From Candidatus Woesebacteria bacterium (GTDB lineage: Bacteria; Patescibacteriota; Microgenomatia; UBA8517): DNA of 64,000 bases. Within the stretch, counting starts at the first letter, position 1, and every line of letters begins with the position of its first letter. Shown here piece by piece: positions 811-63,440 of this stretch. The notes beneath the pieces are model-generated. The model saw only the letters and a list, made by a program, of their open reading frames with translations. It was not told the DNA's origin and did not search any database. The DNA lies in contig CP058602.1 of NCBI GenBank assembly GCA_013426185.1, positions 10,231 to 74,230 of the forward strand, in the 5' to 3' direction. The position numbers were made by a program, and so were the translations under genes.

Positions 811-1516
811 AGGTAAAAGGCGAGAGGTAAAAGATAAAAGAAATCGGCTGTCAGACATCGGATATCAGACATCGGACATCGGCTATCAGCTATCAGCTAT
901 CGGCCTTCGATTGTCGTCTATTGGTCGAAAGCTAGTCAGAAGCTAGTATTTTGTATTATGTATTATGCAGGAAAATGTATTATCCCCATAATACATAATT
1001 CATAATACTAAATTCATTATTATAATTATATTTTCCAAGCCGGGTTTGGAATCCTATTGCCAACGCGGGTCTGAGTAGACCAATTCCCAAATTTTAGATC
1101 AAAAATCAATATTCAAAGGTGTAAGTTGGTTGTTGGGTGTTGATTGTTGTCTGTTGTGAAAGTGACAAGGACGGACCTTGTCAGGTACCCTTTAAAGGTC
1201 AGACCTTTAAAGGGTCAGCGGCTATTCTCTAATCTGTAGTTTCTATTCTCTAATTCTTTATTCCTAGATCTTAAATCTAGATTCTATAATCTGTTTGTGA
1301 TTTGGAGTTTGTAAATTGTTTGTATATTGGAATTTGGAACTTGGAATTTGTTTGTGATTTGCAATTTGGAATTTGTGATTTGGAGTTTGTTTAGAATTTA
1401 GATATTAGAATTTAGAATTTGGAATTTGTATATTGGAACTTGGAATTTTATCTATAATCTATAATCTAATTAGAAGTTTTGACTTTTGAGTTTTAAGTTT
1501 TAAGTTAACTTAATTT
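811..1516. repeat. Composite low-complexity intergenic repeat array. Modules: ggtaaaagg; cggaYatcRg tandems; gtattatgtattatgcagg with its inverted partner; two palindromes; ctataatc; ttggaatttg; gttttgacttttgagttttaagtt
   Basis: Direct reading: the whole comEA-comEC spacer is built from 5-12 nt tandem units. The same modules recur in the same order at >12 other intergenic sites in this window. Confidence 0.85.
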
Positions 1517-2590
1517 ATGTTTAAATTTTTCTTTTGGCTTCTGGTTATTCTTTTGATCGTCTTTCGCTTCTTTTATCTTCGGCCCAATTTCATTGACGGC
1601 TCAAGAATTAGAATTTCGTCTGAAAGAATAGGAAGTGAGCCTTTGCGGTTTGAGAAAAGCCAAAGAATAACAATTCTTGGTCTTAAAGCTTATTTGCCTT
1701 TGTATCCTGAAATTAATTATGGAGATATGGTAACTGTGGAGGGAAGGGTAAACCTCAAGAAAAAAACGCTTGATGAGGCAAAACTTATTAAACTTGAAAA
1801 GGGCAATAGTTTTTATAAATTAAGAGAGCGATTGATTCTTTTTTATCAAAAATACCTTCCTGAACCTCATTCAAGTTTAGTTGCCGGAATGGTTTTGGGT
1901 TCAAAAGCAAGTCTGCCTTATGATTTTTGGCAAAATCTAAAAAAGACAGGCACGGCTCATGTGGTAGTTGCCTCGGGAATGAATGTTTCCTTAATTGCCG
2001 GATTTTTGGCCTCCTTTTTTATCATTTTTCTCAAAAGGCGCTATGCCTTATTGCTTTCGCTTTTGGGAATTTGGTTTTATGCTTTTCTTTGTGGCTTTGA
2101 GGCGCCTATCATAAGAGCTTCTATAATGGGTAGCCTTTCTTTCATTGCTGTTATTTTTGGCCGTATGAATTTAGCTTTAAGAGCTCTTTTTGTCTCGTTT
2201 TTTCTTATGCTTATTTTTAATCCTTACTTTATTTTTGATGTTGGTTTTATTCTTTCTTTTGCTGCAACTTTGTCATTAATTCTTTTTCAAAAGAAAGTAG
2301 ACAACTTTTTGAGATTCATTCCTTCTTTTTTAAGAGAGGGCTTTTCAACTTCTCTTGCAGCCCAAATCTTGGTCGCCCCGATACTTTATTTTACATTTGG
2401 ATACTTTTCGATATACTCGCCCCTGATAAACGGTCTTGTGCTTTGGACGGTTCCTTATATCACTATTTTGGGAATGCTTTCTGGCATTTTTTCCCTTTTT
2501 ATTCCTTTTTTGGGTAGATTTTTGCTTCTTTTGTCATATCCTTTGATTTTTTGGTTTGTAAGTTTGGTTAATCTTTTGGGAAGTATATGA
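1517..2590 (+). CDS. comEC: ComEC/Rec2 N-terminal part (DUF4131 plus polytopic competence membrane domain)
   Basis: Polytopic membrane protein with 'GTAHVVVASGMNVSLIAGFLA' ComEC competence-domain signature. The stop overlaps the next ORF start (ATGA). Confidence 0.75.
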   Translation: MFKFFFWLLVILLIVFRFFYLRPNFIDGSRIRISSERIGSEPLRFEKSQRITILGLKAYLPLYPEINYGDMVTVEGRVNLKKKTLDEAKLIKLEKGNSFYKLRERLILFYQKYLPEPHSSLVAGMVLGSKASLPYDFWQNLKKTGTAHVVVASGMNVSLIAGFLASFFIIFLKRRYALLLSLLGIWFYAFLCGFEAPIIRASIMGSLSFIAVIFGRMNLALRALFVSFFLMLIFNPYFIFDVGFILSFAATLSLILFQKKVDNFLRFIPSFLREGFSTSLAAQILVAPILYFTFGYFSIYSPLINGLVLWTVPYITILGMLSGIFSLFIPFLGRFLLLLSYPLIFWFVSLVNLLGSI

Positions 2591-3513
2591 ATATCAAGTT
2601 TTGGCGGTTTTTCTTTGGCTTTTTAGTTTTGTCTTCGGCTTTGGTTTGGCTCTTTGTCTTTCTTTCGCCTGATGACAAGTTTCATCTTGTCGCCTGTAAT
2701 GTGGGGCAGGGAGATGCGATTCTTGCTTATTATAAAGACAATCAAGTTTTGATTGATGGCGGGCCGGGGAATAGGGTACTTGATTGCCTTAGTCGTCATA
2801 TGCCCTTTTGGGATAGAAAGATTGAAATGGTCGTCCTGACTCATCCTGAGGCCGATCACTTTAGTGGTTTGATAGAGGTTTTTAAAAGGTATAATGTTGG
2901 AGCTTTTTTGGCATCTCCGCTTGAATCTAGCAGTCAAGGATACCAATTGCTAAAAGAAGAGGTGGGGAGTCGTGGGGTTAGGGTTATAGAACCGGATAGG
3001 GGTAAGAATATAGGAGTTGGTTTGATGCATTTTGTTATACTTCATCCATCGCATCAATTTTTGGCTGAAAATTCAAGCTTAGATACAACATCTCGTAATA
3101 ATCAAAATGTATCAGTCTTGGGTGCAAGAACAACTAATAGGAACTTGAATGAATTTTCAATTAACCTCATTTTAAGCTTTGGTGAGTTTGATGCTTTACT
3201 GACTGGTGATATTGTTCCTTCTGCTTCAGGTGAAGTTGAAGAGGCTTTTAAATCAGCTTTGGTGTTTATTAAAGACGGTAAGGTTGAATATCTCAAAGTG
3301 CCTCATCATGGTAGCAAAAATGGATTAACGCAGGATTTGCTGGAATTAGTAAGGCCTAAAATTGCTGTTATTTCAGTAGGCAAGAACTCCTATGGCCATC
3401 CAAGTCCTGAAATTTTGAAGATGCTTGAAAATGCTGGTGCTTCAGTTTTTCAAACTAAAGAGATGGGGGATGTAGAAGTAATCTCAGACGGCTTGAGGTG
3501 GAGGATCAGATAG
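2587..3513 (+). CDS. comEC: ComEC C-terminal metallo-beta-lactamase domain, encoded as a separate ORF
   Basis: 'LVACNVGQGDAILAY...IDGGP' and 'HPEADHFSGL' MBL-fold motifs. 4-nt overlap with the upstream ComEC membrane ORF. Confidence 0.8.
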   Translation: MNIKFWRFFFGFLVLSSALVWLFVFLSPDDKFHLVACNVGQGDAILAYYKDNQVLIDGGPGNRVLDCLSRHMPFWDRKIEMVVLTHPEADHFSGLIEVFKRYNVGAFLASPLESSSQGYQLLKEEVGSRGVRVIEPDRGKNIGVGLMHFVILHPSHQFLAENSSLDTTSRNNQNVSVLGARTTNRNLNEFSINLILSFGEFDALLTGDIVPSASGEVEEAFKSALVFIKDGKVEYLKVPHHGSKNGLTQDLLELVRPKIAVISVGKNSYGHPSPEILKMLENAGASVFQTKEMGDVEVISDGLRWRIR

Positions 3514-3530
3514 TTGTTATAGCAGCTATA
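3506..3530. repeat. Left inverted repeat / palindrome (gttatagcagctataacggttataa) flanking the four-helix-bundle gene
   Basis: The 17-nt perfect palindrome gttatagc-a-gctataac is followed by ggttataa repeats. The partner at 4075-4098 is its reverse complement with 1 mismatch. Confidence 0.7.
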
Positions 3531-3550
3531 ACGGTTATAATGGTTATAAC

Positions 3551-4075
3551 ATGCCGGGCGGTTATAAAAGTCTAGCCTTTTTTATCCAGTCCTCAATAAT
3601 CTACGATTTCACTGTCCAATTTGTTAAGCGCTATATTGAAAAAGGCTCACGCACGGCCGGTCAGATGGTTCAAGCAGCTCGTTCAGGGAAGCAAAATATA
3701 GCCGAAGGCTACCTTCAAAAAAGCTTTGAGGGTAAACTCAAGTTAATCTCAGTCTCAAGAGCAAGTCTTGAGGAGCTCTTAAATGATTATTGCGATTTTT
3801 TGAGACAGAAAAATTTGAAACTTTGGGATAAAAATAGCTCTCTTTCCCAAAGAGTAAGAAGCCTTGCTTATCAAGACAACAAAAGTTACCAGACTTACGA
3901 GAAATATCTTTTAAATCCAGAATCGGCTGCAAACGCAATGATTTGCTTTATCAACCAAACTAACAAGCTTCTTGACCAAAAAATTAGGTGGCTTGAAGAA
4001 GACTTTGTCAAGCAGGGTGGCTTTAGAGAAAACTTGTTTAGGAAAAGAAGGGAATATCTTGCCAAAAGACGATAG
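3551..4075 (+). CDS. Four-helix-bundle protein (23S rRNA intervening-sequence protein family, TIGR02436-like)
   Basis: 'GKQNIAEGY' motif and predicted all-helical 170-aa protein. Gene bracketed by inverted palindromic repeats. Confidence 0.5.
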   Translation: MPGGYKSLAFFIQSSIIYDFTVQFVKRYIEKGSRTAGQMVQAARSGKQNIAEGYLQKSFEGKLKLISVSRASLEELLNDYCDFLRQKNLKLWDKNSSLSQRVRSLAYQDNKSYQTYEKYLLNPESAANAMICFINQTNKLLDQKIRWLEEDFVKQGGFRENLFRKRREYLAKRR

Positions 4076-4098
4076 TTATAATCGTTATAGCTGCTATA
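4075..4098. repeat. Right inverted repeat / palindrome (ttataatcgttatagctgctataa)
   Basis: Reverse complement of the 3506-3530 repeat. Contains the palindrome gttatagc-t-gctataa. Confidence 0.7.
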
Positions 4099-4106
4099 AT
4101 ATTTAT

Positions 4107-5873
4107 ATGAACTTAAAACTAAAGGACCTGGTTGCTTCCTCTTTGGGGCTTGAGGCGGGCGATATTTCTCTTGAAATACCGGAGAAAGAAGAGTTTGGCG
4201 ATTATACCACCAATTTGGCAATGCAGATTTTTGGTGACTCTACGAAGCTAAAAAAGCTTCCTTTTGGATCTTTTGATTTCAAAAATCCGCAAGGACTAGC
4301 ATCAAAAATATCTGAAATCTTAAGCCAAAACAAAGAATTGATGCATTTTATTTCTAAAATTGAAGTTAAAAAACCAGGTTTTATTAATTTTTGGTTAAAA
4401 GATGATACTTTATTTAATAATTTGATATCTATAAGTAAGGAAAAGTATGATTATGGATCAAGTCAGATTGGGGTAGGTAAAAGGGTGGTGATTGATTATT
4501 CGTCCCCTAATATTGCCAAGCAATTTTCGATTGGGCATTTGCGTTCAACTATCATTGGCCATGCGCTTTACAACATCTACCAGTTTCTGGGCTACAGGAC
4601 TATTGGCGATAACCACCTTGGTGATTGGGGGACTCAATTTGGCAAGCTTATTTATATGCTTCGCCGCTACCAGCTTAATTCTCTTGATGTTAAGACTCTT
4701 GAAGAGCTTTATGTTAAGTTTCATAAACTAGCCGAAGAAGATAAAACGGGAGAGATGGAGTTTCAGGCTCGTATCTGGTTTAGCAAGCTTGAGAAAGGTA
4801 ATAAAACGGCTTACCTCACTTGGCAAAAATGCCGCCAAATCTCGCTTCAAGAATTCAACAGAATTTATGACCTTTTGGGTGTTTCTTTTGACTATATGCT
4901 TGGTGAGAGCCATTACCAATCAGAAATAAAATCAATGCTAAAAGACAAAAAGCTATTATCAGTTCTTGAAGAAGGGGAAAATGGGGCCAAAATAATCCGT
5001 CTTGATGAGTTTGGTATAAAAACGCCTCTTATGTTTCTAAAAAGTGATGGCGCAACAACTTATGCGGCGCGAGATTTAGCTTGCCTTAGGTATCGTATGA
5101 AGCGCTTTCAGCCTCATATTATTATTTATGAGGTTGGGCAGGAACAGACGCTTCATTTTAAGCAGGTTTTTGCCGCTGCGCGCAAGCTTGGGATTGTTCC
5201 TCCTGAAGTTATTCTTTATCACACTCGCCACGGTCTTTATCTTTCTTCTTCTGGTCGCAAATTTTCAACCAGAAAAGGGGGAGCTGTTAATCTTGAAGAA
5301 GTTCTAAGAGAGGCAATAGCAAAAGCAAGGAAAATTATTGAAAGTTCTGCCACTTCACGCAATCTTTCGGAAGCTGAAATAGAAAGAGTTTCAACCGATG
5401 TTGGGATAGGTGCTATCAAATACTTTGACCTTAAGCATTCAGTTGAAAGCGATATTGTTTTTGATTGGAAAAAGATTTTGGCTTTGGAAGGAAACTCCGG
5501 GCCTTATATTCAATATACTTTTGCCCGCGCTTTTAGTGTCTTAAGTAAAGCCAAGGAGGAGGGAATTGATTTTGAAAAGGAGACTTACCTTTCAAGTTTT
5601 GATTTAGACGATCAGGAAAAAAATATTATCAGGCAGGTTTTTCATTTTGGCGAAATAATTCAAAAATCAGCTGTTGAATTTGCGCCCAACGTTTTATGCG
5701 ATTACCTTTTTACTCTTTCCCAGAAATATAACAGTTTTTATGACAAGTATCCGATTTTAAAGGAAAAGGACTTGCAAAAGAGGTTTTTGCGTCTAAAATT
5801 AACAGAAGCAACAAGCTGGGTTTTGAGAAATGGCTTGAGGCTTCTTGGCATTGAGGTAATAGAGAAGATGTAG
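4107..5873 (+). CDS. argS: Arginine--tRNA ligase
   Basis: Class I aaRS with 'SSPNIAKQFSIGHLRSTIIG' (HIGH region) and C-terminal anticodon-binding (DALR-type) domain. Start moved to the ATG at 4107 (MNLKLKD); the tracked ORF from 3972 overlaps the upstream gene and the IR. Confidence 0.9.
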   Translation: MNLKLKDLVASSLGLEAGDISLEIPEKEEFGDYTTNLAMQIFGDSTKLKKLPFGSFDFKNPQGLASKISEILSQNKELMHFISKIEVKKPGFINFWLKDDTLFNNLISISKEKYDYGSSQIGVGKRVVIDYSSPNIAKQFSIGHLRSTIIGHALYNIYQFLGYRTIGDNHLGDWGTQFGKLIYMLRRYQLNSLDVKTLEELYVKFHKLAEEDKTGEMEFQARIWFSKLEKGNKTAYLTWQKCRQISLQEFNRIYDLLGVSFDYMLGESHYQSEIKSMLKDKKLLSVLEEGENGAKIIRLDEFGIKTPLMFLKSDGATTYAARDLACLRYRMKRFQPHIIIYEVGQEQTLHFKQVFAAARKLGIVPPEVILYHTRHGLYLSSSGRKFSTRKGGAVNLEEVLREAIAKARKIIESSATSRNLSEAEIERVSTDVGIGAIKYFDLKHSVESDIVFDWKKILALEGNSGPYIQYTFARAFSVLSKAKEEGIDFEKETYLSSFDLDDQEKNIIRQVFHFGEIIQKSAVEFAPNVLCDYLFTLSQKYNSFYDKYPILKEKDLQKRFLRLKLTEATSWVLRNGLRLLGIEVIEKM

Positions 5874-9104: not shown

Positions 9105-9340
9105 CAACGTAACTAGAGAGCAAAAATTTATAATTCAAGTTCAAGGTTAAAAATTAAAAGTTTGAATTTGCTAGTTTGTAATTTGAAAAATTGGATAATT
9201 GTAGAATTGTTTAAAATTTAGATATTAGAATTTGGAATTTTATTCTATAATCTGTATTCTGTAATCTGTTTCTGGACAAAGTCGGACTTTGTCCGATTGA
9301 CAAGGACGGACCTTGTCAATCCTATATTTTTCCTATATTT
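9105..9340. repeat. Modular low-complexity repeat array with palindromes ggacaaagtcggactttgtcc (9274-9294) and tgacaaggacggaccttgtca (9298-9318)
   Basis: Direct reading. Same module vocabulary (ttggaatttg, ctataatc, aaagtt) as the other arrays. Confidence 0.8.
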
Positions 9341-10387: not shown

Positions 10388-10738
10388 CACGACAGATCTC
10401 GGTCGTCGGACATCAGCTGTCGGATATCGGCTTTCAGACGTCAGACTTCAGACATCGGATATCGGCCGTCGGACATCAGCTGTCAGCCGTTGGCAATTAA
10501 TCAAAGCTGGTCGGAAGCAGTATTTAGTATTTTGTATTATGTATTATGCAGGAAATACAAGTAGAAAGTAGAAAGTAGAATGTAGAATGTAGTAAGTAGA
10601 AAGCAAAAATTCATAACTCAATAGTTAAAGGTTCAAAGTTAAAAGTTGTGTATTATCCTTTCTACTTTCTGCTTACTACTTTCTACTAATTTTAAGTTTT
10701 GACTTTTGATTTTTGAGTTTTAAGTTAATTTGTAATCT
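10388..10738. repeat. Modular low-complexity repeat array, forward orientation
   Basis: cggaYatcRg tandems, then gtattatgtattatgcagg, then gtagaaagtagaa, then aaagtt units, then gttttgacttttgatttttgagttttaagtt. Confidence 0.85.
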
Positions 10739-11984: not shown

Positions 11985-12720
11985 GCCTGAAAGCGAGAGG
12001 GAGCTGGTCGGAAGCTAGTATCACGTATCACGAAGCAAGAATCAAGAATAGGTAAAAGGCAAGAGGTAAAAGGTGAAAAAGAAACTCAAGTAGAAAGTAG
12101 AACGTAGTAAGTAGAAAGCAACGGATTTCAGCTATCAGCCGTCAGTTGTCGGAGTTGATCAGAAACTTGTATCCAGTATCTTGTATTATGTATTATGCAA
12201 GAAAATGCATTATCCCCATAATACATAATTCATAATACACAATACTAAATTCTTTTCCCTTTGTTCTATGTTCTATGTTCTATGTTCTTTGTTCTAATCT
12301 CAAGTTTTGACTTTTGAGTTTTAAGTTTTGAGTTATACTTTTGAATTTTGAGTTTTAAGTTTTAATTTAATTTGTGATTTGGAACTTGGGATTTGTTTGT
12401 AATTTGTATATTGGAATTTGGAATTTGTATATTGCCTGCCCGCAATGCTTTCAGCATAGCTGATGCAGGCGGGGGTAAAGGGTAAGAGAAATTCAAGTAG
12501 AAAGTAGTAAGTAGAATGTAGAAAGTAAAAAATCCACGGCCTAAAGGCCGTGGCTTTCTTGGCTCCATCTAAACTATTCTACATCCACGCGCTAAAGCGC
12601 GTGGCTTTATGATTAGATGTAGTAAAATTCTTAAATCCTAAATCTTAAATCAAAATTCTATAATCAAGGTTTTAAGTTTTGAATTTTGAATTAATTTTTC
12701 TCTCTTGTAGTCGTCTCGTT
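11985..12720. repeat. Modular low-complexity repeat array including two GC-rich hairpins (ccacggcctaaaggccgtgg, ccacgcgctaaagcgcgtgg)
   Basis: Direct reading. The hairpins are flanked by A/T runs and look like bidirectional terminators. The same pair recurs inverted at 15860-15950. Confidence 0.85.
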
Positions 12721-12790: not shown

Positions 12791-13804
12791 ATGATTGAAA
12801 TTAGGAAAAGAATTGCGATTGACCTTGGGACGGCAAATACTTTGGTTTGGCTCGCAGGTGAGGGAATAGTAGCTAATGAGCCGACTGTTGTTGCTGTTTC
12901 AGCTGAAGACAATCAGGTGGTAGCAGTTGGTGAGGAGGCAAAAAAGATGCTTGGCCGAACTCCTGAGAGCTTAATTGCCTCACGTCCTATGCGAGATGGG
13001 GTTATTGCCGACTATCAAATCACAGAAGCAATGCTTCGTTATTTTATTCAAAAAGTAAGCGGCAGATTTCAATTCTTCAGGCCTGATGTCATGGTTTGTG
13101 TGCCTGCTGGTTGTACTCAGGTTGAAAGAAGGGCAGCACTTGATGCTACTTTGTCAGCTGGGGCGGCTCATGCTTTTTTGATAGATGAGCCACTGGCCGC
13201 AGCAATTGGCGCCGGAATTCCTGTATCGGCTCCATCAGGGCATATGATTGTTGATATTGGGGGTGGTGCAACCGAAGCGGCTGTCATTTCTTTAGGCGGG
13301 GTCGTGGTTCACAAAAGCGTTCGTGTGGCAGGTAACAAGATTGACGAGGCAATTCAGGATTACTTGCGCAAGAAGTATAACTTGATAGTTGGTGATCAGA
13401 CCGCGGAAGACATCAAAATCAAAATAGGTTCTGCCACCAAAGATGTAAAGGAGGAAAAACTTGAAGTTTCAGGGCGCGACTTGGTTTTTGGTTTGCCAAG
13501 AAGCGTGGTTTTATCTTCAAAAGAAATCTGCGATGCAATTCGAGGCCCTGTCAACCAAATTATTGGTGCTGTTAAGGCTGTTCTTGAAGATACGCCGCCT
13601 GAGCTTGCGGCTGATATAATAGATAAGGGTATTATTATGAGCGGCGGAAGTAGTTTGCTGCGCAATCTTGATAGATACTTAACTTTGGAAACTGGGGTTC
13701 CAGCTCATGTGGCAGAAGATCCTCAGCTTTGTGTTGTCAAGGGCACTGGTCTTGTTCTTGAGAATATAGAACTTTGGAAAAGAAGTGTTACAACCAAAAG
13801 ATAA
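12791..13804 (+). CDS. mreB: Rod-shape determining protein MreB (copy 1)
   Basis: 'IAIDLGTANTLVW' phosphate-1 motif; actin-fold motifs throughout. Confidence 0.9.
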   Translation: MIEIRKRIAIDLGTANTLVWLAGEGIVANEPTVVAVSAEDNQVVAVGEEAKKMLGRTPESLIASRPMRDGVIADYQITEAMLRYFIQKVSGRFQFFRPDVMVCVPAGCTQVERRAALDATLSAGAAHAFLIDEPLAAAIGAGIPVSAPSGHMIVDIGGGATEAAVISLGGVVVHKSVRVAGNKIDEAIQDYLRKKYNLIVGDQTAEDIKIKIGSATKDVKEEKLEVSGRDLVFGLPRSVVLSSKEICDAIRGPVNQIIGAVKAVLEDTPPELAADIIDKGIIMSGGSSLLRNLDRYLTLETGVPAHVAEDPQLCVVKGTGLVLENIELWKRSVTTKR

Positions 13805-15502: not shown

Positions 15503-15959
15503 CAATCAAAATTACAAATCACAAATTACAAACAAATTCCAAGTTCCAAATCACAAATTAACTCAAAACTTAAAACTCAAAAGTCAAAACTTGAGATTAG
15601 AACAAAGAACATAGAACATAGAACATAGAACATAGAACAAAGGGAAAAGAATTTAGTATTGTGTATTATGAATTATGTATTATGGGGATAATGCATTTTC
15701 TTGCATAATACATAATACAAGATACTGGATACAATCTTTCGGCAAGTTTCCGATTAGCTTCGGCAACCGGCTCCCGACGTCCGATGTCCAACAACTGATG
15801 TCCGATATCCGATATCTGAAGTCCGAATTCTTTTACCTTTTAACTTTTACTACATCTAATCATAAAGCCACGCGCTTTAGCGCGTGGATGTAGAATAGTT
15901 TAGATGGAGCCAAGAAAGCCACGGCCTTTAGGCCGTGGATTTTTTACTCTTTTACCTAT
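15503..15959. repeat. Modular low-complexity repeat array, inverted orientation relative to 11985-12720
   Basis: Reverse-complement copies of ttggaatttg, ctatgttctatgttc, gtattatg and cggaYatcgg modules, plus the two GC hairpins. Confidence 0.85.
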
Positions 15960-18453: not shown

Positions 18454-19030
18454 TTAAGTCAGCATAAAGTATTTTAATAGGTAAAAGGTAAGAGACTTCA
18501 GCTATCGGACATCGGACGTCGGATATCGGCCGTCGGACATCAGCTGTCGGATATCGGATGTCGGATGTCAGACTTCGGTCGTCGGCTATCAGCTATCGGA
18601 GATTAATCAAAGGTAGCCGGAAGATTGTATTTAGTATTTTGTATTATGTATTATGTATTATGCAGGGAATACAAGTAGAAAGTAGAACGTAGTAAGTAGA
18701 AAGCAAAAGATTGTATCTAGTATTTTGTATTATGTATTATGGGAACAATGCATTTTTCTGCATAATACATAATTCATAATACTAAGTTCAGAATTTTTCC
18801 CTTTGTTCTTTGTTCTAACCTAGCAGGTAAAAGGCAAGGGGTAAAAGGTAAAAGGTAAAAGGTAAAAGAAATTCAATTAGAAAGTAGAAGGTAGTAAGTA
18901 GAAAGCAAAAATTCCTAGATTTTAAATCAATATTCAAGAGTTAAGCTGTCATTTTTTAGCCAGTAAAACTGAGCTGTAAAAACCTCCTGAGTCGTTAGCG
19001 AATCTTTTGCGGCGATGAAATTGTGTGCAG
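18454..19030. repeat. Modular low-complexity repeat array
   Basis: cggaYatcgg tandems, gtattatg units, the gtattatgggaacaatgcatttttctgcataatacataattcataatac hairpin, ccctttgttctttgttc, ggtaaaagg and gtagaaagtag units. Confidence 0.85.
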
Positions 19031-19039: not shown

Positions 19040-20005
19040 TTATTCGATATTGTGAGACCAGTAATCATTTGGGTCTAATCCTGTATCCAAACTTTCCAGC
19101 TTGTAACCTAAAGCTAGCAATCCCGCTACAATATTTTCGGCTTGATTTATATCATACCATCTTGTTGAATGGGATAAGACTATAGCTCCATTATTAATCC
19201 TATTATTGATAACTCTTTCTTGCGTTTCGGCATCGAGACCTCCGCTTTCAAGGCTCCAGATAACCGTTTGCATACCGAACTTTGCAACCTGTTCTCTTAC
19301 TCTTTGATTTCTATTACCATAGGGAGGGCGGAAAAACCTTAATGGGTATCCAGGAATAACTTTATTTAAAAGTTTAATAAATTTAGAGAGTTGTTTTTCA
19401 ATTTCTTTTGAGGTGAGAGATGTAAAGGGAACGTGTTCGTAGCCATGGCATCCGAGGGTATGCCCATTCTCTACTATTTGCCATGCGATATCGTGGTTAG
19501 GTTCTCTTTCTAACCATTCACCTGTCACAAAAAAACTTGTTTTGCAATTATATTTCTTGTAGACATTAAGGATTTTAGTAATATCATCTGTTCTGCCCCC
19601 ATCATCATAAGTTATAAGTATAACCTTACGGTTTTTATCTCCTCGTGATATTTCGTGGTTTGCTAAAAAGTTTATTTTCTCTTGAGTAATTTGCCCATTT
19701 TCAGATTGGGAAAGAAATTCAGGCGGCAAAGGGGTGAAAGTTGATGTTGGCTCGGGTGTGAAAGTTGATGTTGGTTCTGGTGTTTGAGTTTGGGTTGGAG
19801 TAGGAATTGTTGTCTCAGTAGGAGTAAGAGAAGGCCCCTTGGTAGGTTCTGGAGTTGGAGTTAGATCAGGACTACCCCCTTTGTTTTCATAAGGAGGAGT
19901 AATTCCACAAGCAGAAAGAAATCCAGCCGCAGATACAATAACTGCTCTTTTCAAGAATTCTCTTCTTGATATTCTTTCTTCTACTTTCCTTTCTGCTTTT
20001 GCCAT
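19040..20005 (-). CDS. Tat-lipoprotein with Pro/Thr linker and CE4 polysaccharide deacetylase domain
   Basis: 'SRREFLKRAVIVSAAGFLSAC' (Tat + lipobox), PT-rich linker, 'ILITYDDGG' and 'HGYEH' CE4 motifs. Confidence 0.75.
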   Translation of the reverse strand: MAKAERKVEERISRREFLKRAVIVSAAGFLSACGITPPYENKGGSPDLTPTPEPTKGPSLTPTETTIPTPTQTQTPEPTSTFTPEPTSTFTPLPPEFLSQSENGQITQEKINFLANHEISRGDKNRKVILITYDDGGRTDDITKILNVYKKYNCKTSFFVTGEWLEREPNHDIAWQIVENGHTLGCHGYEHVPFTSLTSKEIEKQLSKFIKLLNKVIPGYPLRFFRPPYGNRNQRVREQVAKFGMQTVIWSLESGGLDAETQERVINNRINNGAIVLSHSTRWYDINQAENIVAGLLALGYKLESLDTGLDPNDYWSHNIE

Positions 20006-20040
20006 AACTTAATAAGTATTATAGGACTTGTATGAAAGAT
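19783..20040. repeat. Inverted-repeat copy A (~258 bp): promoter -10, 5'UTR, signal peptide and PT-linker of the lipoprotein gene
   Basis: Nucleotide-identical reverse complement of 21076-21330, verified by reading both strands. Confidence 0.85.
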
Positions 20041-21071: not shown

Positions 21072-21075
21072 TTTT

Positions 21076-41060: not shown

Positions 41061-41061
41061 G

Positions 41062-41134: not shown

Positions 41135-41162
41135 ACTTTTCAAAAATTATAACAGACAGCCT

Positions 41163-42209: not shown

Positions 42210-42230
42210 AGTACAAATTACAATATACAA

Positions 42231-42610: not shown

Positions 42611-42632
42611 TCTACTTTCTACTGTTGTTAGT

Positions 42633-47706: not shown

Positions 47707-48037
47707 AGATTAATTTTAGGTTTATTGAGGCTTTAAGGCAAGGGGAAAGCAGTCGGAGTTGGTCCTCGCTTAGAGCAAGGTTGGCCAAAGTTAGTCTCCA
47801 CCTGCGGCGGAGTTAGTCGAAGCTGGCAGGAAGCTAGTATTTAGTATTTTGTATTATGTATTATGCAGGAAATACAAGTAGGAAGTAGAAAGTAGTAAGT
47901 AGAAAGCAAAATTCATAAATCTTAAATCTTAAATCCTAAATCTAGATTCTATAATCTGTTTGTAATTTGGATCTTGGAATTTGTAATTTTAACTTTTGTA
48001 ATCCGTGACAAGGACGGACCTTGTCAACAAAACTAAA
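47707..48037. repeat. Modular low-complexity repeat array ending in the palindrome tgacaaggacggaccttgtca (48006-48026)
   Basis: Direct reading. Confidence 0.85.
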
Positions 48038-50876: not shown

Positions 50877-51009
50877 AACCTTTTAAGATTTTAGATCAAA
50901 AAGGAAAAATAGGAAAGAGGGCTGGGCTTTGGCCTACCATGGTGGCAACATGGGTATCTCCTAAGTGACAACCCTCTTTCCTTGCCACTTGTTTAGTTGG
51001 TGACATGCC

Positions 51010-51246
51010 TTATTTTAATGGATGACGGCCCGGATCCCCTTTGGGAACATTCTGGTCTGTTAAGTGAATATTGGGTTCTCCCCTTAAGTTAAAGCTTACT
51101 CGTATGCCTTTATCATCAGGACCAGTTTGCCCCAACAGTGTAAGATGACCGGTGTTAGGATCAAGTATATTTATCTGTCTCCACCAGTCATCTCCCATTA
51201 TTAGAGAATCTCGTTGAGAGTTAAACAAGTCGAATAACTTAGTCAT
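51010..51246 (-). CDS. Small protein (78 aa), paralog of 53413-53652, behind a conserved ~200-nt leader
   Basis: GGAGGTG Shine-Dalgarno, then ATG (MTKLF...). The tracked ORF begins 4 codons upstream (MRCEM) in both paralogs. Confidence 0.45.
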   Translation of the reverse strand: MTKLFDLFNSQRDSLIMGDDWWRQINILDPNTGHLTLLGQTGPDDKGIRVSFNLRGEPNIHLTDQNVPKGDPGRHPLK

Positions 51247-51258
51247 CTCACACCTCAC

Positions 51259-51480
51259 TTGTTAGAAATTCTTGACCGATGATGTGATTCGAGCTCTCCA
51301 GGCTCTCAACTTAGAATTACACCTCCAAAACTGAATTTAAATGTGCTTAGGATTTTTTCCCCGCTGTTGAGGTAAATCCTTATTTTTCTTTTAGCAAAAA
51401 AGGATAAAAGTCAAGTTATGGGGTGATTGATGGTGGTGGACAAGGTCCGACACTGTCCTGACAAGGACGGACCTTGTCAA
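51259..51480 (-). promoter_or_regulatory. Conserved 5' leader / candidate cis-regulatory RNA, copy 1. Contains TTGACT -35-like box and an aggatt..aatcct hairpin; begins with the tgacaaggacggaccttgtca palindrome
   Basis: About 80% identical by eye to 53665-53880 over ~190 nt. Hairpin stem conserved while loop sequence differs. Confidence 0.4.
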
Positions 51481-51590
51481 TTACCCTTTAAGGGGTCTGG
51501 TTTATAAAAGGATATATGGCTAGAAAGTAATAAGGAATAGGGAAATTCTTAAGTCTAATTTATTAATTTCTTATCCTAGACGGTTAGAAA

Positions 51591-52007: not shown

Positions 52008-52213
52008 TTTTCTGTTTTATTGGAGAATAACCATTTTATTTTACACCTTTTACTTAAAGTTACTTAAAAAGAGGAAGTGGAATTTAATTCTTGCTTGGCG
52101 GCATTCAAGCTTACCCTTTCAAGGATCTGATTTATAAATTTTTAATTCCTCAATTTGTAGATCTTGAATTTCGGCCCTAAATCAAATAGCCTGTAATTGA
52201 TACGGTATAATAA

Positions 52214-52435
52214 GTGGCATATTCCATGACCAAGTCTGAAGAAACCAAGTTTTCAATCAAAGTGCCTTTGCCTAAAAAGAAGGTGGAGAAGTATCTACAC
52301 ACTTTAAGGCTCTCCTCAGTAAGGGAAGCTGGAGAGAGCAAGTTAAAGGCTTTGTTCCTTAAAACAATTGACGATTTTTTAACAGGTGATCTTTCTCTTG
52401 ATGAATTTTCTGCTATCTCTAATTATTTGTGGTAG
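52214..52435 (+). CDS. Short ORF carrying the same DFLTG block. Possibly a gene fragment
   Basis: 'LKTIDDFLTGDLSLDEFSAISNYLW'. Confidence 0.25.
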   Translation: MAYSMTKSEETKFSIKVPLPKKKVEKYLHTLRLSSVREAGESKLKALFLKTIDDFLTGDLSLDEFSAISNYLW

Positions 52436-52703
52436 GAAAGTGGAGTTGTGTTAGGAAAAGAAAAGAGTAGCAAAGAATTTTATAGCCTTTTACAAATGAG
52501 TGGGGAATTAAGCTTTTATATACGTGGTAGGACTAAAGAAGTACGAAAATCTGCTTTGAGGGTTTTAGATCTCATCTTTGATTATTACGGCAAATGTTCT
52601 TAATTGAGGAAAACTGTTGTGATTTACTCTAGATGAAAGAATAAAAGTCAAATTAAGATGTGTTCGAAAATTATGATTCTTTTTCTTGATAAGAAATATA
52701 TTA

Positions 52704-53282: not shown

Positions 53283-53412
53283 AATTCTATTTTAGTAGAT
53301 TTTGAGAAAAAAGGGGAAGAATTGAGAGTATTGCTCTCTACACGGTAGCTTTGTGGTTATAGCTTAACTGCACAATTCTTCCCCTTACTCAGCTACTTGC
53401 ATTGGTTTTGAC

Positions 53413-53652
53413 CTATCGATCGAATGGCCCTTTGATGGTGCCTCTTAGAAGATCAATGGAGATTCCCAGGTCTTGGTAAACGCCATGATAGTCAATTACC
53501 CGACCATTCTTGTCAAAGGTAATCGAAGTTCTTGCGTTGAATTCTTTGTTGAATTCTGTTATCTTTGTGGTCCCATCTTGAGAACCCCATATGTTAGCAC
53601 CACCTTTTGATCCCCGGATCTCAATATCTGGTTTTCCCTTAGGGTCAGACAT
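53413..53652 (-). CDS. Small protein (79 aa), paralog of 51010-51246
   Basis: Same GGAGGTG-ATG context. Sequence blocks appear circularly permuted relative to the paralog. Confidence 0.45.
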   Translation of the reverse strand: MSDPKGKPDIEIRGSKGGANIWGSQDGTTKITEFNKEFNARTSITFDKNGRVIDYHGVYQDLGISIDLLRGTIKGPFDR

Positions 53653-53664
53653 TTCACACCTCAC

Positions 53665-53880
53665 TTTTTGAATTCTGATTTGACGACCGATTTAGAGCTT
53701 TCCAGGCTCTCAACTAGAATTACACCTCCAAAACTGAATTTTTGAACGTGCTAGGATTTTCCTTCGCTTTTGAAGTGAATCCTTATTTTTCTTTTAGCAA
53801 AAAAGAGGATAAAAGTCAAGTTATTGGGGTGATTGATGGTGGTGGAATGGTCTGACCCTGTCCTGACAAGAAGGGTTTTT
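53665..53880 (-). promoter_or_regulatory. Conserved 5' leader / candidate cis-regulatory RNA, copy 2
   Basis: Aligned by eye to 51259-51480. Confidence 0.4.
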
Positions 53881-53887
53881 TGGGGGG

Positions 53888-56347: not shown

Positions 56348-56389
56348 GATGATTGAATAGGGACAGGTTCGGACCCTGTCCTGAAGTTT

Positions 56390-56830
56390 ACTACAAATAC
56401 ATCGATGTATTTATAGTTGAAGAAGTTGAAAGTTAATTTGCTAGATTTTAATTGCGTAAGATGACAAGGACGGACCTTGTCAAGCACCCTTTAAAGGCCT
56501 GGCCTTTAAAGGGTGGTCGAGGATGGCCGGAGCTGGTAGGAAGCTAGTATTTAGTATCTTGTATTATGTATTATGCAGGAAATACAAGTAGGAAGGAGAA
56601 AGTAGTAAGTAGAAAGCAAAAATAAAAAGTTCAAAATTAAAAGTTCAAAGTTGGAATTTACTAGTTTGTAATTTGGAAAATTGGATAATTGTAGAATTGT
56701 TTAGAATTTAGGATTTAGAAATTAGAATTTGGAATTTGTATATTGGAATTTGTATATTGTATATTGTTTGTAATTTGTGATTTGTTTATTGGAATTTGTA
56801 ATTTTATTCTTTGTCCTATGTTCTTTGTTC
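56390..56830. repeat. Palindrome cluster (double palindrome; tgacaaggacggaccttgtca; caccctttaaaggcctggcctttaaagggtg) followed by a modular low-complexity array
   Basis: Direct reading. Confidence 0.85.
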
Positions 56831-56882
56831 TCTTTTTGTTTCCCCTTTGAAATTATTTTGTGAGAAGATATACTTTAGGCCG

Positions 56883-58010
56883 ATGAGGGAATATTTTGAA
56901 AAGCTTAAATTGGGCAAAATAAAGCTGAAGTTTGACAGTCTAAATCCCAAACCTTTGTTTTTAAAAGTTGTTTTTGGCAAGATTCTTGGTCCTCTTTCTT
57001 TTGATGTTGGTATTGATCTTGGAACAGCCAATACTTTAGTTTGGGTCAAGGGGAAGGGAATTGTGATCAGGGAGCCATCGGTTGTTGCAAGGCGCAAAAA
57101 AACAAAGGAAATTTTGGCGATTGGGACTGCCGCAAAAAGAATGCTTGGCAAAGCGCCTGCTACCATTGAAGTTGTGAGACCCCTTAAAGATGGTGTGATC
57201 TCCGATTTTGACGCAACAGAAAGTATGCTTTCTTTTTATATCAAGAAAGTTCATGAGTCAGGAACGGCAGTCCCCAAAATTCCAAGGCCAAGAGTTGTCA
57301 TTGGTATTCCTTCGGGAGTAACAGAAGTTGAAAGAAGGGCGGTGTCAGATGCTGCTCTTTCTGCAGGCGCAAGAGAAGTTCATTTGGTTGAGGAGCCTTT
57401 GGCTGCTGCAATTGGTGCAAAGCTTGAAGTAACCAGGCCCGATGGAATCTTGGTAGTTGATATTGGTGGTGGCACAACTGAAATAGCGGTTATTTCCTTG
57501 GGGGGTATTGTTTTAGGTAAATCAATCAGAATTGCAGGAGATGAGATGAATGAGGCAATTATTAATTATGTTAAGCTAAAATATTCTCTTCTTTTGGGAG
57601 AGGGGACAGCAGAAGATGTAAAGATAAAAATTGGTACTTGTCGGCCTGAAAAAGAAAAGTTCTATGTTGTTCGTGGCCGGGATTTGGAGCGAGGTTTACC
57701 TAAATCAATCAAGCTTTCAAATATGGAAGTCCAAGAGGCTCTTTCTCCTATTATTAATGAGATTGTTGGCAATATAGCAGATTTACTTGAAGAGACACCC
57801 CCTGAATTGATGGCAGATATTATGGAGCAAGGGGTTTATTTAGCAGGTGGCGGTGCTTTACTTGAGGGGATTGATAAAGTAATTTCTGAGGCTATTAAAA
57901 TTCCTGTTAATATAGTTGAAGACCCACTTGCTTGTGTGGTTCGTGGTTGTGGCGCTCTTCTTGAAAACCCTGATCTTCTCTATCGTGTAAGATTAACAAG
58001 GGGACTATAA
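56883..58010 (+). CDS. mreB: Rod-shape determining protein MreB (copy 2), directly upstream of PBP2
   Basis: 'GIDLGTANTLVW' and actin-fold motifs. Start moved to the ATG at 56883, downstream of the repeat array. Confidence 0.85.
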   Translation: MREYFEKLKLGKIKLKFDSLNPKPLFLKVVFGKILGPLSFDVGIDLGTANTLVWVKGKGIVIREPSVVARRKKTKEILAIGTAAKRMLGKAPATIEVVRPLKDGVISDFDATESMLSFYIKKVHESGTAVPKIPRPRVVIGIPSGVTEVERRAVSDAALSAGAREVHLVEEPLAAAIGAKLEVTRPDGILVVDIGGGTTEIAVISLGGIVLGKSIRIAGDEMNEAIINYVKLKYSLLLGEGTAEDVKIKIGTCRPEKEKFYVVRGRDLERGLPKSIKLSNMEVQEALSPIINEIVGNIADLLEETPPELMADIMEQGVYLAGGGALLEGIDKVISEAIKIPVNIVEDPLACVVRGCGALLENPDLLYRVRLTRGL

Positions 58011-60716: not shown

Positions 60717-60747
60717 GATTGACAAGGACGGACCTTGTCACAAAAAT

Positions 60748-62730
60748 ATGAACTTAATAATTGTAGAAAGTCCAACAAAAGCAAGAACTTTATCTAAAAT
60801 TTTGGGTAAGGATTATGTTATTGAGGCTACGATGGGCCATATCAAAGACTTGCCCAAAAGTGAGCTGGGGGTTGATATCGAAAATAATTTTAAACCTGAT
60901 TACCTTCTTGTTGCCAAAAAGAAAGAAGTAGTTGATAAGATACTTAACGCGGTAAAAAAAATTGGTGAAGATGGATTAATTTTACTTGCGACAGATCCTG
61001 ATCGTGAGGGAGAAGCGATAGCCTCTCATGTTGCTGAGATAATTTTGGATAAGGGCAAGGTTAAAAAAGATATCTTAAAAAGAATTACCTTTCACGAAAT
61101 TACCAAAGAAGCTTTGTATCAAGCTTTAGCTTCGCCTTCTGCTATTGATTCCAACTTAGTTGATGCTCAGACTGCAAGGCGAGTTTTGGATAGACTTGTG
61201 GGTTATAAGCTTTCACCTCTTTTGTGGAAGAAAGTAAGAAGAGGCCTTTCTGCTGGTCGTGTTCAGACAGTTGCAGTAAGACTAATTGTTGAGAAAGAGC
61301 GCGAAATTGAGGCTTTTTCCCCTCAGGAATATTGGGAGATAACAGCTGAGCTTGAAAAAGATAAAGAGAAATTTGTAGCCAAACTTTTGGAGATAGAAGG
61401 AAAAAAAGCCGAGGTCAAAAATCAAAACGAGGCAGAAGCGGTTGTCTCAGATCTTGAAAAATCTAATTATTTTGTTTTAGATGTTATTAAAAAAGAAGTT
61501 CGTAAAGCTCCTCATCCACCTTTCACCACTTCTACTTTGACTCAGGCAGCTGCCAACCTCTTTTTTTGGTCTTCAAAAAGAACAATGAGTATTGCTCAAA
61601 GGCTTTATGAGAAAGGTTTGATAACCTATCACCGTACAGATTCGGTTAATATCGCAGAAGTCGCGCTTTTGAAGGCAAGAGATTATATTAAGGCAAATTT
61701 TGATAAAGCCTATTTGCCAGGTAAGCCTCGAGTTTTTAAGAAGAAAGCCAAACTTGCGCAGGAAGCGCATGAGGCAATTCGCCCTGCCGATCCGTTTTTG
61801 AAACCTTATTCTCCTGAAATTGATGTTGAGCCTGAAGGGCATAGGCTTTATGAGCTTATCTGGAAGCGCTTTATGGCAAGTCAGATGGCTGAATCTGTTT
61901 ATGATGAGACAAAGGTCAAAGTTAGAGCTCAGGGTTCAAAAGATTATTTATTTGGCGCAAACGGACTTATTATGAAATTTGATGGCTGGAAAGTCTTGTA
62001 TTCCAAAAAGTCAGAGGATGTTGTTTTGCCAAAGCTTGAAAAAGGAAACAAGTTGTCTTTGGTAAAACTAACGCCAGAGCAAAAGTTTACCCAACCACCA
62101 GCTCGTTATACAGAGGCTTCTTTGATCAAAACTCTTGAGAAGCTTGGCATCGGCAGGCCATCAACTTATGCGCCGATTATTTCAACTATCCAGCTTCGCA
62201 ATTATGTTGAAAAGAAGGAAGGGAAGTTTTATCCCACCAAAATTGGAATTGCAGTTAATGATTTCCTGATACCTAACTTTAATGATATTTTTGATTATTC
62301 GTTTACTGCAAGAATGGAGGATAATCTTGATTTGATAGCAAAAGGAAATTTGGTTTGGCAGAATGTGATTCGGGATTTTTGGAGCCCTTTTGTTTTGATT
62401 TTGGAAAGTGTTGAAGCAAATTCGCAAAGGGTCAAAATAGAGGCCGATTTTTTGGGCAAGAAATGTCCTGAGTGCAAAGAAGGAGACTTGGTGATTAGAA
62501 TAGGCAGGTTTGGTAAGTTTGTTTCCTGTTCTCGTTTTCCTGAGTGTAAATATAGGGAAAAGTATGTTGAGAAAATTGGAATTAGTTGTCCTGAATGCAA
62601 AAAAGGGGAAGTGGTTGTTAAAAGAACTGCAAAGGGCAAGAAATTTTACGGCTGCTCGCATTATCCTGATTGCAAGTGGGCAAGCTGGAGAAAACCTCAA
62701 GCAAATAATCCAACACCGGGTGTTGACTAG
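60748..62730 (+). CDS. topA: DNA topoisomerase I with C-terminal zinc ribbons
   Basis: 'MNLIIVESPTKARTLSKILGKDYVIEATMGHIKDLP' TOPRIM and 'LITYHRTDS' active-site Tyr region. Three C-terminal CxxC...CxxC ribbons. Confidence 0.95.
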   Translation: MNLIIVESPTKARTLSKILGKDYVIEATMGHIKDLPKSELGVDIENNFKPDYLLVAKKKEVVDKILNAVKKIGEDGLILLATDPDREGEAIASHVAEIILDKGKVKKDILKRITFHEITKEALYQALASPSAIDSNLVDAQTARRVLDRLVGYKLSPLLWKKVRRGLSAGRVQTVAVRLIVEKEREIEAFSPQEYWEITAELEKDKEKFVAKLLEIEGKKAEVKNQNEAEAVVSDLEKSNYFVLDVIKKEVRKAPHPPFTTSTLTQAAANLFFWSSKRTMSIAQRLYEKGLITYHRTDSVNIAEVALLKARDYIKANFDKAYLPGKPRVFKKKAKLAQEAHEAIRPADPFLKPYSPEIDVEPEGHRLYELIWKRFMASQMAESVYDETKVKVRAQGSKDYLFGANGLIMKFDGWKVLYSKKSEDVVLPKLEKGNKLSLVKLTPEQKFTQPPARYTEASLIKTLEKLGIGRPSTYAPIISTIQLRNYVEKKEGKFYPTKIGIAVNDFLIPNFNDIFDYSFTARMEDNLDLIAKGNLVWQNVIRDFWSPFVLILESVEANSQRVKIEADFLGKKCPECKEGDLVIRIGRFGKFVSCSRFPECKYREKYVEKIGISCPECKKGEVVVKRTAKGKKFYGCSHYPDCKWASWRKPQANNPTPGVD

Positions 62731-63440
62731 CTTCAAACAGTGGGTAAAGACGGACTTCGGACTTCAGTTATCGGCTGTCGGACATCGGACATCGGATATC
62801 GGATATCAGTTATCGGCTGTCGGATATCGGCTGTCGGAATTCAGTCGAAGTTAGTCGGAAGAAAATATCTGCATTATGAAAGATCCAAGTAGAAAGTAGT
62901 AAGTAGAAAGTAGAAAGCAAAATTAATAAATAGTTAAAAGTTCAAAGTTGAAAGTTAAAAGAATTCGGATTTCAGCTATCAGTTGTCAGCTGTCGGAGTT
63001 GTTTGCTATCTTAATTCATAAATCTTAAATCCTAAATCAAAATTCTATAATCTATAATCCATAATCAAAAATCTATAATCTAATCATAAAGTTTTGACTT
63101 TTGATTTTTAATTTTTAATTTAATTTGTGATTTGGAATTTGCCTGCCCTGAATCGAATTTATTCTGGTTCAGGGTTTAGAATTTAGATATTAGAATTTAG
63201 AATTTGGAATTTGTATATTGTTTGTATATTGGAATTTGGAGCTTGGATTTGTAATTTCTAATTTGTGATTTTCCCTTTGTTCTTTGTTCTAACCTAGTAG
63301 GTAAAAAGCAAGGGGTAAAAGGTAAAAGAAATTCAAGTAGAAAGTAGAACGTAGTAAGTAGAAAGCAAAATTCTATAATCTATAATCCAAAATCTATAAT
63401 CTAATTAGAAAGTTTTGACTTTTAACTTCTGCCTCTTGAG
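62731..63440. repeat. Modular low-complexity repeat array, the longest tandem instance (module order repeated roughly twice)
   Basis: Direct reading. Confidence 0.85.

Follow-up and report, generated by a model that had tools for sequence, protein, structure and literature searches.

The 64,000-nt stretch of Candidatus Woesebacteria contig CP058602.1 analyzed here (positions 10,231 to 74,230; hereafter, the window) carries composite arrays of short repeats, 187-831 nt long, in many of its intergenic spacers. We propose, with a probability of about 0.6, that these arrays are satellite-like tandem heptanucleotide intergenic DNA of the kind known as short tandemly repeated repetitive (STRR) elements or long simple sequence repeats (SSRs), formed by slippage and recombination between arrays and most likely without a gene-specific role. 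The kind of repeat itself is known; what is new is the phylum that hosts it, together with its unit sequences and the strict grammar by which the modules follow each other. A sequence-only reading of the window had described a dispersed modular family of intergenic repeats with embedded palindromes and both orientations, and this description is supported. All 14 regions that it delimited hold repeat modules and sit between open reading frames (ORFs) or tRNA genes, their coordinates sum to 6009 nt or 9.4% of the window (about 10% had been claimed), and the two regions given as reversed, 15503-15959 and 42231-42610, match the modules on the minus strand. The arrays also account, as had been suspected, for probably spurious ORFs of 50-114 aa. 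Two of the regions, 9105-9340 and 20190-20350, contain the modules in degenerate form, and the list of 14, although real throughout, omitted small arrays at 31939-31982 and 34668-34702.

Heptanucleotide units and module grammar

Self-identity at lag 7 reaches 0.536 within the 14 regions, compared with 0.274 outside them, and is echoed at lags 14, 21, and 28. By a sliding criterion, 3638 nt of the window (5.7%) are lag-7 periodic, with 98% of this DNA intergenic, and every other lag from 4 to 12 accounts for at most 85 nt. Periods of 7, 14, 21, and 28 likewise dominate the output of Tandem Repeats Finder; each module is thus a short tandem array of heptamers, and the units of 8, 10, or 11 nt proposed earlier are wrong. 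The units fall into nine classes: A (TCRGNYR, for instance TCGGACA), B (GTATTAT), C (AAGTAGA, terminating in AAGCAAAA), D (AAGTTAA), E (TTGGAAT, TTTGTAA, or TTTAGAA), F (TCTATAA or TCTTAAA), G (TGTTCTA), H (AGGTAAA), and I (AGTTTTG). Inverted copies of B and C units are denoted by lower-case b and c, and small GC-rich hairpins by P1 to P4. A module described earlier as ttaaatc/aaagtt is present but comprises two modules rather than one. Each of the nine classes has 4-18 tandem matches, where shuffled sequence gives 0.05-1.6; GTAGTAAGTAGAAAGCAAAA, the 20-mer that closes module C, has 12 matches in the window and a B-C junction 24-mer has five, where none are expected for either. Blocks of several modules, 60-170 nt in length, recur between arrays at 80-97% identity.

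Transitions between modules were counted in 147 arrays from the window and from metagenome loci, a set with some redundancy between strains, and they are strongly directional. A is followed by B in 57 cases and B by A in 2; the corresponding counts are 70 and 12 for B to C, 52 and 2 for C to D, 31 and 0 for D to E, 35 and 0 for G to H, 40 and 1 for H to C, and 27 and 0 for F to I. The main paths are H>A>B>C>D>E>G>H and C>F>I>E. The conserved module order proposed from the window is therefore correct as regards direction; however, the grammar branches and cycles, and a single linear order is not seen.

Length and module changes between strains

Strains were compared through fifteen metagenome contigs that are orthologous to segments of the window and share 88-99.7% identity with it. 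Flanking genes and ordinary spacers are collinear between them, whereas the array spacers vary in length in nearly all comparisons. Plain spacers are constant to within 1 nt, with the exception of 36461-36574, which has 114 nt here, 474 nt in strain contig L114, and 433 nt in L164. The comEA-comEC spacer, 707 nt long in the window, has 655 nt in L135 and L176, 1804 nt in L132, and 1922 nt in L088; the spacer of the array at 10389-10738 changes from 350 to 469 nt in L135, where it holds other modules; that of 36650-37027 has 399 nt in L114; and that of 42210-42628 changes from 497 nt here to 423 nt in L164. Two further array spacers change from 831 to 509 nt and from 768 to 955 or 723 nt. Array spacers align at 79-81% identity with 117-305 gap columns (as does the array at 15503-15959 with L098 and L157), compared with 91-96% for the adjacent genes and 92-95% with one gap for a plain spacer.

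Between-strain array changes of whole units amount to 7, 14, 28, and 42 nt. For example, L084, which is 99.7% identical to the window, lacks exactly 42 nt (6 units) of module A at 62764-62805, and L088 and L132 are one 7-nt unit apart. Net indels of at least 7 nt are multiples of 7 in 11 of 25 cases within arrays (p=3e-4) and in none of 41 cases outside them, where multiples of 3 are common. The arrays therefore display the whole-unit length polymorphism between close relatives that marks the tandem-heptamer class. Larger changes involve entire blocks: the spacer 35740-35926 reads B-loop-b-G-I in the window (187 nt) and B-C-D-E-G-I in L114 (287 nt), which is a module-block swap, and in L157 the array upstream of mreB (11985-12720) has neither the A-B-b-G-I block nor the P4 hairpins. 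Some array spacers also contain strain-specific genes. The comEA-comEC spacer of L132 and L088 has a nested 127-aa ORF (L088 6901-7284, membrane-like), and in a strain with 98-99.7% identity the locus 47707-48037 extends over about 1.9 kb with two ORFs inside; Pfam yielded no family for the strain-specific ORFs nested in arrays. Contig Ga0101944_10004089 (L127 and L084) has, at about 3120-4770, two ORFs nested in an array, one of 87 aa and one for a 407-aa protein that contains an HExxH motif.

Recurrence in independent assemblies and other genomes

That the arrays might be an assembly or synthetic artefact has a negligible probability. Short-read assemblies do break at the arrays, as an artefact might; but the arrays recur in independent Joint Genome Institute (JGI) and Logan assemblies, which excludes this explanation. 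The spacer 56348-56810 is reproduced base for base in the JGI contig L084 (0 mismatches in 463 nt), and an identical 655-nt version of the comEA-comEC spacer is found in contigs from two different metagenomes. Two short-read contigs of the Logan set, each from its own run, are 100% identical to the window and break off 41-152 nt inside arrays, the usual behavior of genuine repeats in short-read assemblies.

The repeat family extends well beyond this contig. The C-module 20-mer occurs in exact form on 107 JGI metagenome contig stretches from about 20 datasets; of their 742 kb, 5.6% is lag-7 periodic, and lags 5, 6, and 8-11 each contribute no more than 0.2%. The same composite is present on contigs of 31% to 41% GC, for instance as A-C-F-E on a 777-kb contig. 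Across 80 other mreB loci of Patescibacteria (1.22 Mb), lag-7 DNA amounts to 0.21%, which still exceeds the value for every other lag between 6 and 10 by a factor of 3-8; some GTDB loci contain runs of N that imitated lag-7 arrays, and these runs were left out of the lag counts. The relatives L010, L013, L004, and L009 carry small composite heptamer arrays in the PEGA-mreB spacer, with unit sequences that differ from those of the window, and no heptamer arrays were found in this spacer of the closest relatives examined. Judged from these sequences, heptamer arrays are a low-level trait of Patescibacteria that is greatly expanded, with a vocabulary of its own, in this lineage.

The Microgenomates arrays upstream of mreB lie at 6663-6896 in L013, 1-270 in L010, and about 4810-5040 in L004, each with its own units; ACTGGTA and TGATTAC occur among them, as do ATCAGAA, CTGATTT, and CGAATTT. 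The L013 array continues into a run of N, which is a scaffold gap or a masked stretch. In another case, L153, L160, and L172 (102-215 kb, GC 42-45%) contain a short C-type array with a (CTGACTA) repeat, identical in three metagenomes, just upstream of the 5' end of an apparent 16S rRNA gene; these contigs belong to a different, more GC-rich organism.

Embedded palindromes and hairpins

The hairpins noticed earlier within the arrays have folding z-scores of -4.8 to -8. The B/b palindrome, imperfect and present in six copies of about 65-95 nt, has arms of B units and of their complement, separated by a 19-nt loop. In 28 distinct copies the arms hardly vary and have their mismatches in common, a sign of copying rather than of selection for pairing; a covariation test found little variation to score in such arms. 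The loop has two forms, represented by 17 and 13 of 30 copies (not de-duplicated); at 17-18 of its 19 positions, one form is the reverse complement of the other. The loop may have been flipped by recombination between the inverted arms, after which both forms would have spread through copying. Units of module C pair with an inverted copy at 10559-10687 and 36806-37018.

Of the smaller GC-rich palindromes, P1 (GACAAGGACGGACCTTGTC) has 19 nt, an asymmetric loop, and a 7-bp stem that folds well. Its nine identical copies start at 1164 (1164-1182), 9299, 9574, 20200, 48007, 51460, 55252, 56463, and 60721; all nine are intergenic and on the plus strand, and some lie in heptamer-free spacers. P1 is often followed by P2, the CCCTTTAAAGG palindrome (CCCTTTAAAGG...CCTTTAAAGGG). 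The P3 hairpins (CCTGCC...GGCAGG) are nested in module E, and the double hairpin P4 lies at 12534-12604 and, as an inverted copy, at 15868-15938. A resemblance to repetitive extragenic palindromes (REP) or bacterial interspersed mosaic elements (BIME), suggested earlier for the arrays, fits these embedded palindromes but not the arrays themselves. P1 alone is a short, imperfect, extragenic, multicopy palindrome in the sense of REP and of REPIN (REP doublets forming hairpins). Its flanks are devoid of GTAG and CGTC, it forms no inverted doublets, and no Y1 transposase that could serve as a REP-associated tyrosine transposase (RAYT) is encoded among the window ORFs. P1 looks REP-like or terminator-like, and its confinement to one strand is striking.

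Orientation relative to genes and replication

The orientation of arrays is independent of the flanking genes (++ 20, +- 18, -+ 17, -- 17), and module I consequently adjoins gene ends as often as gene starts. The proposal that the last module stands beside a gene start thus fails, as it adjoins 3' ends equally often, and the same independence leaves an insulator or promoter function at gene starts unsupported. A general role of the arrays as promoters, terminators, or leaders is unlikely. Promoter-like sites are not enriched in the arrays (52 versus 45.5 expected); terminator-like sites are modestly enriched (30 versus 17.6 expected), chiefly owing to P1 and P4. At third codon positions, genes of both strands show an excess of G on the plus strand (+0.26 and +0.23), which indicates a replication-type skew, and the G-rich strand is probably the leading strand.

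Relation to described repeats

Heptanucleotide repeats have been known since 1990 and are the commonest long simple repeats in bacteria (PMC4679880, PMC4692102). The arrays belong to this broad class, as their 7-nt units are arranged head to tail in at least 14 dispersed, mainly non-coding spacers, and the view that no described repeat class has their architecture does not hold: tandem heptanucleotide intergenic repeats such as STRR, the heptamer long SSRs, GGGAATC, GGGGAYT, and TAACTGA form a described class. The known units STRR1-3, TAACTGA, GGGGAYT, GGGAATC, and GGGACCG are all absent from the window, which places the arrays outside every described heptamer family. The STRR1-3 units of heterocystous cyanobacteria are reportedly CCCCAGT, TTGGTCA, and CAACAGT, and none of these forms a tandem dimer on either strand of the window. 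Clustered repeats of the CRISPR type, with repeats of about 24-48 nt separated by unique spacers of similar size, are also distinct from the arrays, whose 7-nt units are contiguous and spacerless.

In Calothrix, Anabaena, and Nostoc, STRR sequences have 7-nt units of several types per genome and an unexplained role (PMC4692102; Vioque, 1997). The present arrays resemble them in being dispersed, mostly intergenic, and variable in copy number, with several unit types, but differ in their Patescibacteria host, in the strict order of at least nine unit types, and in palindromes built from the units. Elhai is said to have described in 2008 small mobile hairpin elements (small dispersed repeats, SDR, about 21-27 nt) nested in Nostoc repeats, a description that P3 within module E resembles. 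As summarized in two later papers, Mrazek (2007) found heptamers to be the dominant class of long SSRs, enriched in non-coding DNA and variable in length between close relatives, and polymerase slippage was proposed; GGGAATC in Xanthomonas and GGGGAYT in Nostoc PCC 7120 are among the examples (PMC4679880, PMC4692102). Those SSRs mostly have one unit type and often four units and are G-rich and G-quadruplex forming, in contrast to the AT-rich composites of 187-831 nt that make up 6-9% of sequence here. The TAACTGA repeats of marine Beggiatoaceae, some cyanobacteria, and Bacteroidetes lie within a few bases of start codons, on the upstream side, and follow the direction of the gene (PMC4679880). 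They share with the window arrays the distribution of intergenic heptamers among related genomes and the stop codons in all frames, which arise because 7 and 3 have no common factor; however, TAACTGA does not occur in the window, and the orientation of our arrays is independent of genes.

The palindromes P1 to P4 are similar to REP, BIME, and REPIN elements (PMC3116915, PMC3733652) in being small, GC-rich, extragenic, and high-copy, with some of them terminator-like; they differ in that P1 is tagless, without inverted doublets and without a nearby RAYT gene, and in that the bulk of the arrays is tandem heptamers. The multicopy elements of four and five heptanucleotides in Geobacter metallireducens, for which a regulatory role was proposed (PMC2700814), are likewise dispersed tandem heptanucleotides. 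Unlike the long AT-rich composites of the window, they have a fixed number of 4-5 units of one type, are GC-rich, and are also intragenic. We found no earlier report of such arrays in Patescibacteria among open-access papers and preprints. Here heptamer repeats reach 6-9% of sequence in a lineage of a phylum known for small, compact genomes. Public metagenomes already contain many strain variants, which record unit slippage, block exchange, and hairpin flipping as a natural time series, and the system permits a clean test of selection on unit sequences. On the practical side, the arrays break short-read assemblies of such genomes and create spurious ORFs.

Origin and possible roles of the arrays

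As heptanucleotide satellite DNA, the arrays would gain and lose units through slipped-strand mispairing in the 7-nt register, and homologous recombination or gene conversion between arrays, by way of shared modules, would carry multi-module blocks among loci. Such copying would homogenize the unit sequences across the genome and generate the module grammar, because each array would be a partly deleted or recombined derivative of one composite order. The arrays would then persist as fast-evolving spacer DNA, with side effects such as hairpins that possibly end transcription, stop codons in every frame, and sites of rearrangement from strain to strain. Several observations weigh against this explanation. 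Identical units are shared by genomes that differ in GC content (31% to 41%) and have genes of only 88-95% identity; recombination within one genome is insufficient to account for this, which suggests selection on unit sequences or exchange between genomes. The strict module grammar exceeds the prediction of simple microsatellite dynamics, and many indels inside arrays have lengths other than multiples of 7. Orientation follows the G-rich strand for 12 of the 14 window arrays, for 11 of the 12 C modules there, and for all nine P1 copies; in the wider metagenome set the bias is about 2:1, and pure slippage predicts no such polarity. The cost of devoting about 10% of the window to arrays in a reduced genome, finally, suggests either weak purifying selection or some benefit. 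Identical units across species-level lineages, strict grammar, and polarity fit a neutral account poorly, and they keep protein binding, single-strand mobility, and cassette exchange under consideration.

Modules could be arrays of sites for sequence-specific DNA- or single-strand-binding proteins with a role in nucleoid structure, replication or segregation polarity, or global regulation, so that selection acts on units and their order; we regard this as unlikely. Unit sequences are kept across diverged genomes while their arrangement turns over, transitions follow a strict grammar, and orientation is biased to the G-rich, probably leading, strand, all as protein sites might be expected to behave; the Geobacter elements (PMC2700814) and cold-shock proteins binding heptamer repeats (discussed in PMC4679880) provide precedents. 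On the other hand, copy number, modules, and even the presence of an array at a locus differ between close strains, orientation disregards the adjacent genes, the closest sequenced relatives are without arrays at the PEGA-mreB spacer, and no candidate for a binding protein emerged. The arrays or their palindromes might instead be non-autonomous mobile elements (REPIN-like, SDR-like, or similar to miniature inverted-repeat transposable elements, MITEs), served by a transposase elsewhere in the genome, possibly a single-strand HUH/Y1 enzyme acting at replication forks. Single-strand transposition by the IS200/IS605 and RAYT families yields strand polarity like that of P1, whose nine identical copies lie on one strand and partly in heptamer-free spacers. 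P3 occurs with the same flanks at different loci in different strains, and C units contain GTAG, given in PMC3733652 as the tag of one REP superfamily. Mobility of this kind is nevertheless clearly improbable, and the specific suggestion of MITE-like elements fails: the arrays have no terminal inverted repeats (on inspection, the H/A end is not the reverse complement of the I end), no evident target duplications, and no fixed length, their 187-831 nt varying between strains. P1 lacks the GTAG/CGTC tag and is never in inverted doublets, no transposase is encoded among the window ORFs, and the presence or absence of P3 in L088 versus L132 is bounded by direct repeats, as unequal recombination would give.

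Retention of the arrays as shared homology, through which related and naturally competent strains exchange, insert, and lose gene cassettes, has poor odds. It would accommodate the strain-specific genes nested at the comEA-comEC spacer and at 47707-48037, the gene-sized, array-bounded differences between L098 and L157 and between L167 and L168, the modules common to species-level lineages, and the presence of comEA, comEC, and dprA in the window. Against it, only about half of some eight large gene-content differences between strains have breakpoints at arrays, which by our rough judgment is near the level that chance would give for intergenic DNA, and other large indels, in L084, L164, and L177/L180, lie away from arrays. 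Phase variation, in which the number of units would shift promoter spacing or 5' untranslated regions and so switch adjacent genes, is very unlikely. Near-identical strains do differ in unit number, and for other SSRs the mechanism is known (PMC12721329); yet arrays are equally common between convergent gene ends, their neighbors include housekeeping genes (such as rplA/rplJ, topA, and mreB), and known switches do not resemble arrays that span hundreds of bases and have nine unit types. A more general formulation, which we likewise rate as clearly unlikely, regards the modules as functional cis-elements, a set of about nine 7-nt words with a grammar and a replication polarity that are either read by proteins or used as homology for cassette exchange among competent strains. 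If true, it would explain how species-level lineages of this genome-reduced phylum have kept identical words despite the turnover of their arrangement. Satellite-like heptamer DNA remains our preferred explanation.

Arrays of the window

Unless stated otherwise, the arrays are read on the plus strand. The comEA-comEC spacer (810-1516) consists of H, A, a B-loop-b hairpin at 939-1015, a unique stretch, P1, P2, F, E (TTGGAAT/TTTGTAA), F, and I. The array at 9105-9340 has degenerate D, E, and F units, falls under the strict lag-7 threshold, and ends with P1-type hairpins at 9275-9321. Between tRNA-Arg and the 3' end of the PEGA-domain gene, the array at 10389-10738 reads A B C D c I, with a long C/c hairpin at 10559-10687. 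The array upstream of mreB (11985-12720) contains H C A B-loop-b G I E, P3 (12435-12473), H C, the double P4 (12534-12604), and F I. Parts of it recur as an inverted copy at 15503-15959, on the minus strand, where the P4 hairpins at 15868-15938 are followed, in minus-strand reading, by A B-loop-b G I E. The array after uppS (18454-19030) reads H A B C B-loop-b G H C F, and Logan contig L001 stops 95 nt into it. The short array at 20190-20350 (P1, P2, H, A, F, I) belongs to a direct-repeat family (D14) with 80% identity to 62953-63047.

Between rplA and rplJ, and antisense to both, the array at 30720-31127 contains A B C D E F I and shares a 170-nt block, 82% identical to 56614-56783 (direct-repeat family D7). 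The small array at 31939-31982, between rplK and rplA, is of H type (GTAAAAG, about four units). Degenerate A units, a B-loop-b hairpin (35752-35838), G, and I form the array at 35700-35926, while the one after tRNA-Trp (36650-37027) has B-like units, H, C, F, a unique stretch, and inverted c. Between queA and tRNA-Tyr, the minus-strand array at 42210-42628 reads C B-loop-b E F I E in its own direction. The array at 47707-48037, inside which Logan contig L082 terminates, comprises degenerate A, B, C, F, and E, followed by P1 (48007-48025). Ahead of the second mreB paralogue, 56463-56837 holds P1, P2, degenerate A, and then B, C, D, E, and G. The last array, at 62731-63442 between topA and the HIT gene, reads A C D A F I E, P3 (63141-63174), and E G H C F I.

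Host and other features of the window

The MreB protein encoded at 12791-13804 is 82-87% identical to proteins of metagenome-assembled genomes of Microgenomates/Woesebacteria, and the gene order methylase-PEGA-mreB-wecG...ispA-uppS is common to the window and to genomes of this group, with proteins 37-87% identical. By these sequence comparisons the host is a Microgenomates/Woesebacteria-like member of Patescibacteria (candidate phyla radiation, CPR). A heterocystous cyanobacterium, an idea that came from the heptamers, is ruled out as host by the MreB matches and the conserved gene order. The housekeeping genes of the window include comEA, comEC, argS, ndk, two mreB paralogues, uppS, rplKAJL, nusG, rnhB, queA, fmt, def, a gene for a PBP2-type transpeptidase, dprA, and topA. 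Several window ORFs have no Pfam family, no transposase was found among the ORFs, and an Rfam search of the whole window at the gathering threshold returned six tRNAs and nothing else. A crude ORF measure gives 78% coding sequence and a median gap of 159 nt for the window, compared with 83-98% and 2-117 nt for related Patescibacteria loci. The ORFs of the second MreB paralogue (56811-58010) and of ribosomal protein L10 (30021-30743) begin 64-68 codons ahead of their Pfam domains and overlap array ends; their true starts probably lie later, which would make the repeat-bearing spacers somewhat longer than the ORF list implies.

Several other repeats are present in the window. An inverted repeat of 275 nt with 98% identity (19778-20052 and 21062-21335) comprises about 75 codons at the 5' end of each of two divergent genes, together with the DNA upstream of them; the two are a polysaccharide deacetylase gene (19040-20005, minus strand) and an ORF without a Pfam match (21108-22070, plus strand). 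Its copies flank a 1.0-kb spacer containing the array 20190-20350, the repeat is seen in L098 and L137 too, and it may be an invertible segment or a common N-terminal region. Long spacers without heptamer arrays occur at 50877-51590, 52008-52703, and 53283-53887. A direct repeat of 232 nt with 84% identity (51241-51465 and 53647-53870) lies in such big heptamer-free spacers and overlaps a pair of short ORFs on the minus strand (51010-51258 and 53413-53664; 82-83 aa). Tandem repeats within ORFs at 22505-22591 (30 nt, 2.9 copies, 94% matches) and 19734-19783 (24 nt, 2.1 copies) have periods that are multiples of 3, and are thus coding repeats unrelated to the heptamer arrays. An Rfam E-value search of 39100-41200 gave only one tRNA and one sub-threshold match. 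This interval overlaps the segment 37815-40887 (of interest especially at 40001-41000), which is missing from the otherwise collinear strain L164. In part of the segment GC content rises to 47% (the window mean is about 38%), and ORFs there overlap on opposite strands and match nothing in Pfam or Rfam; the segment may be recently acquired DNA.

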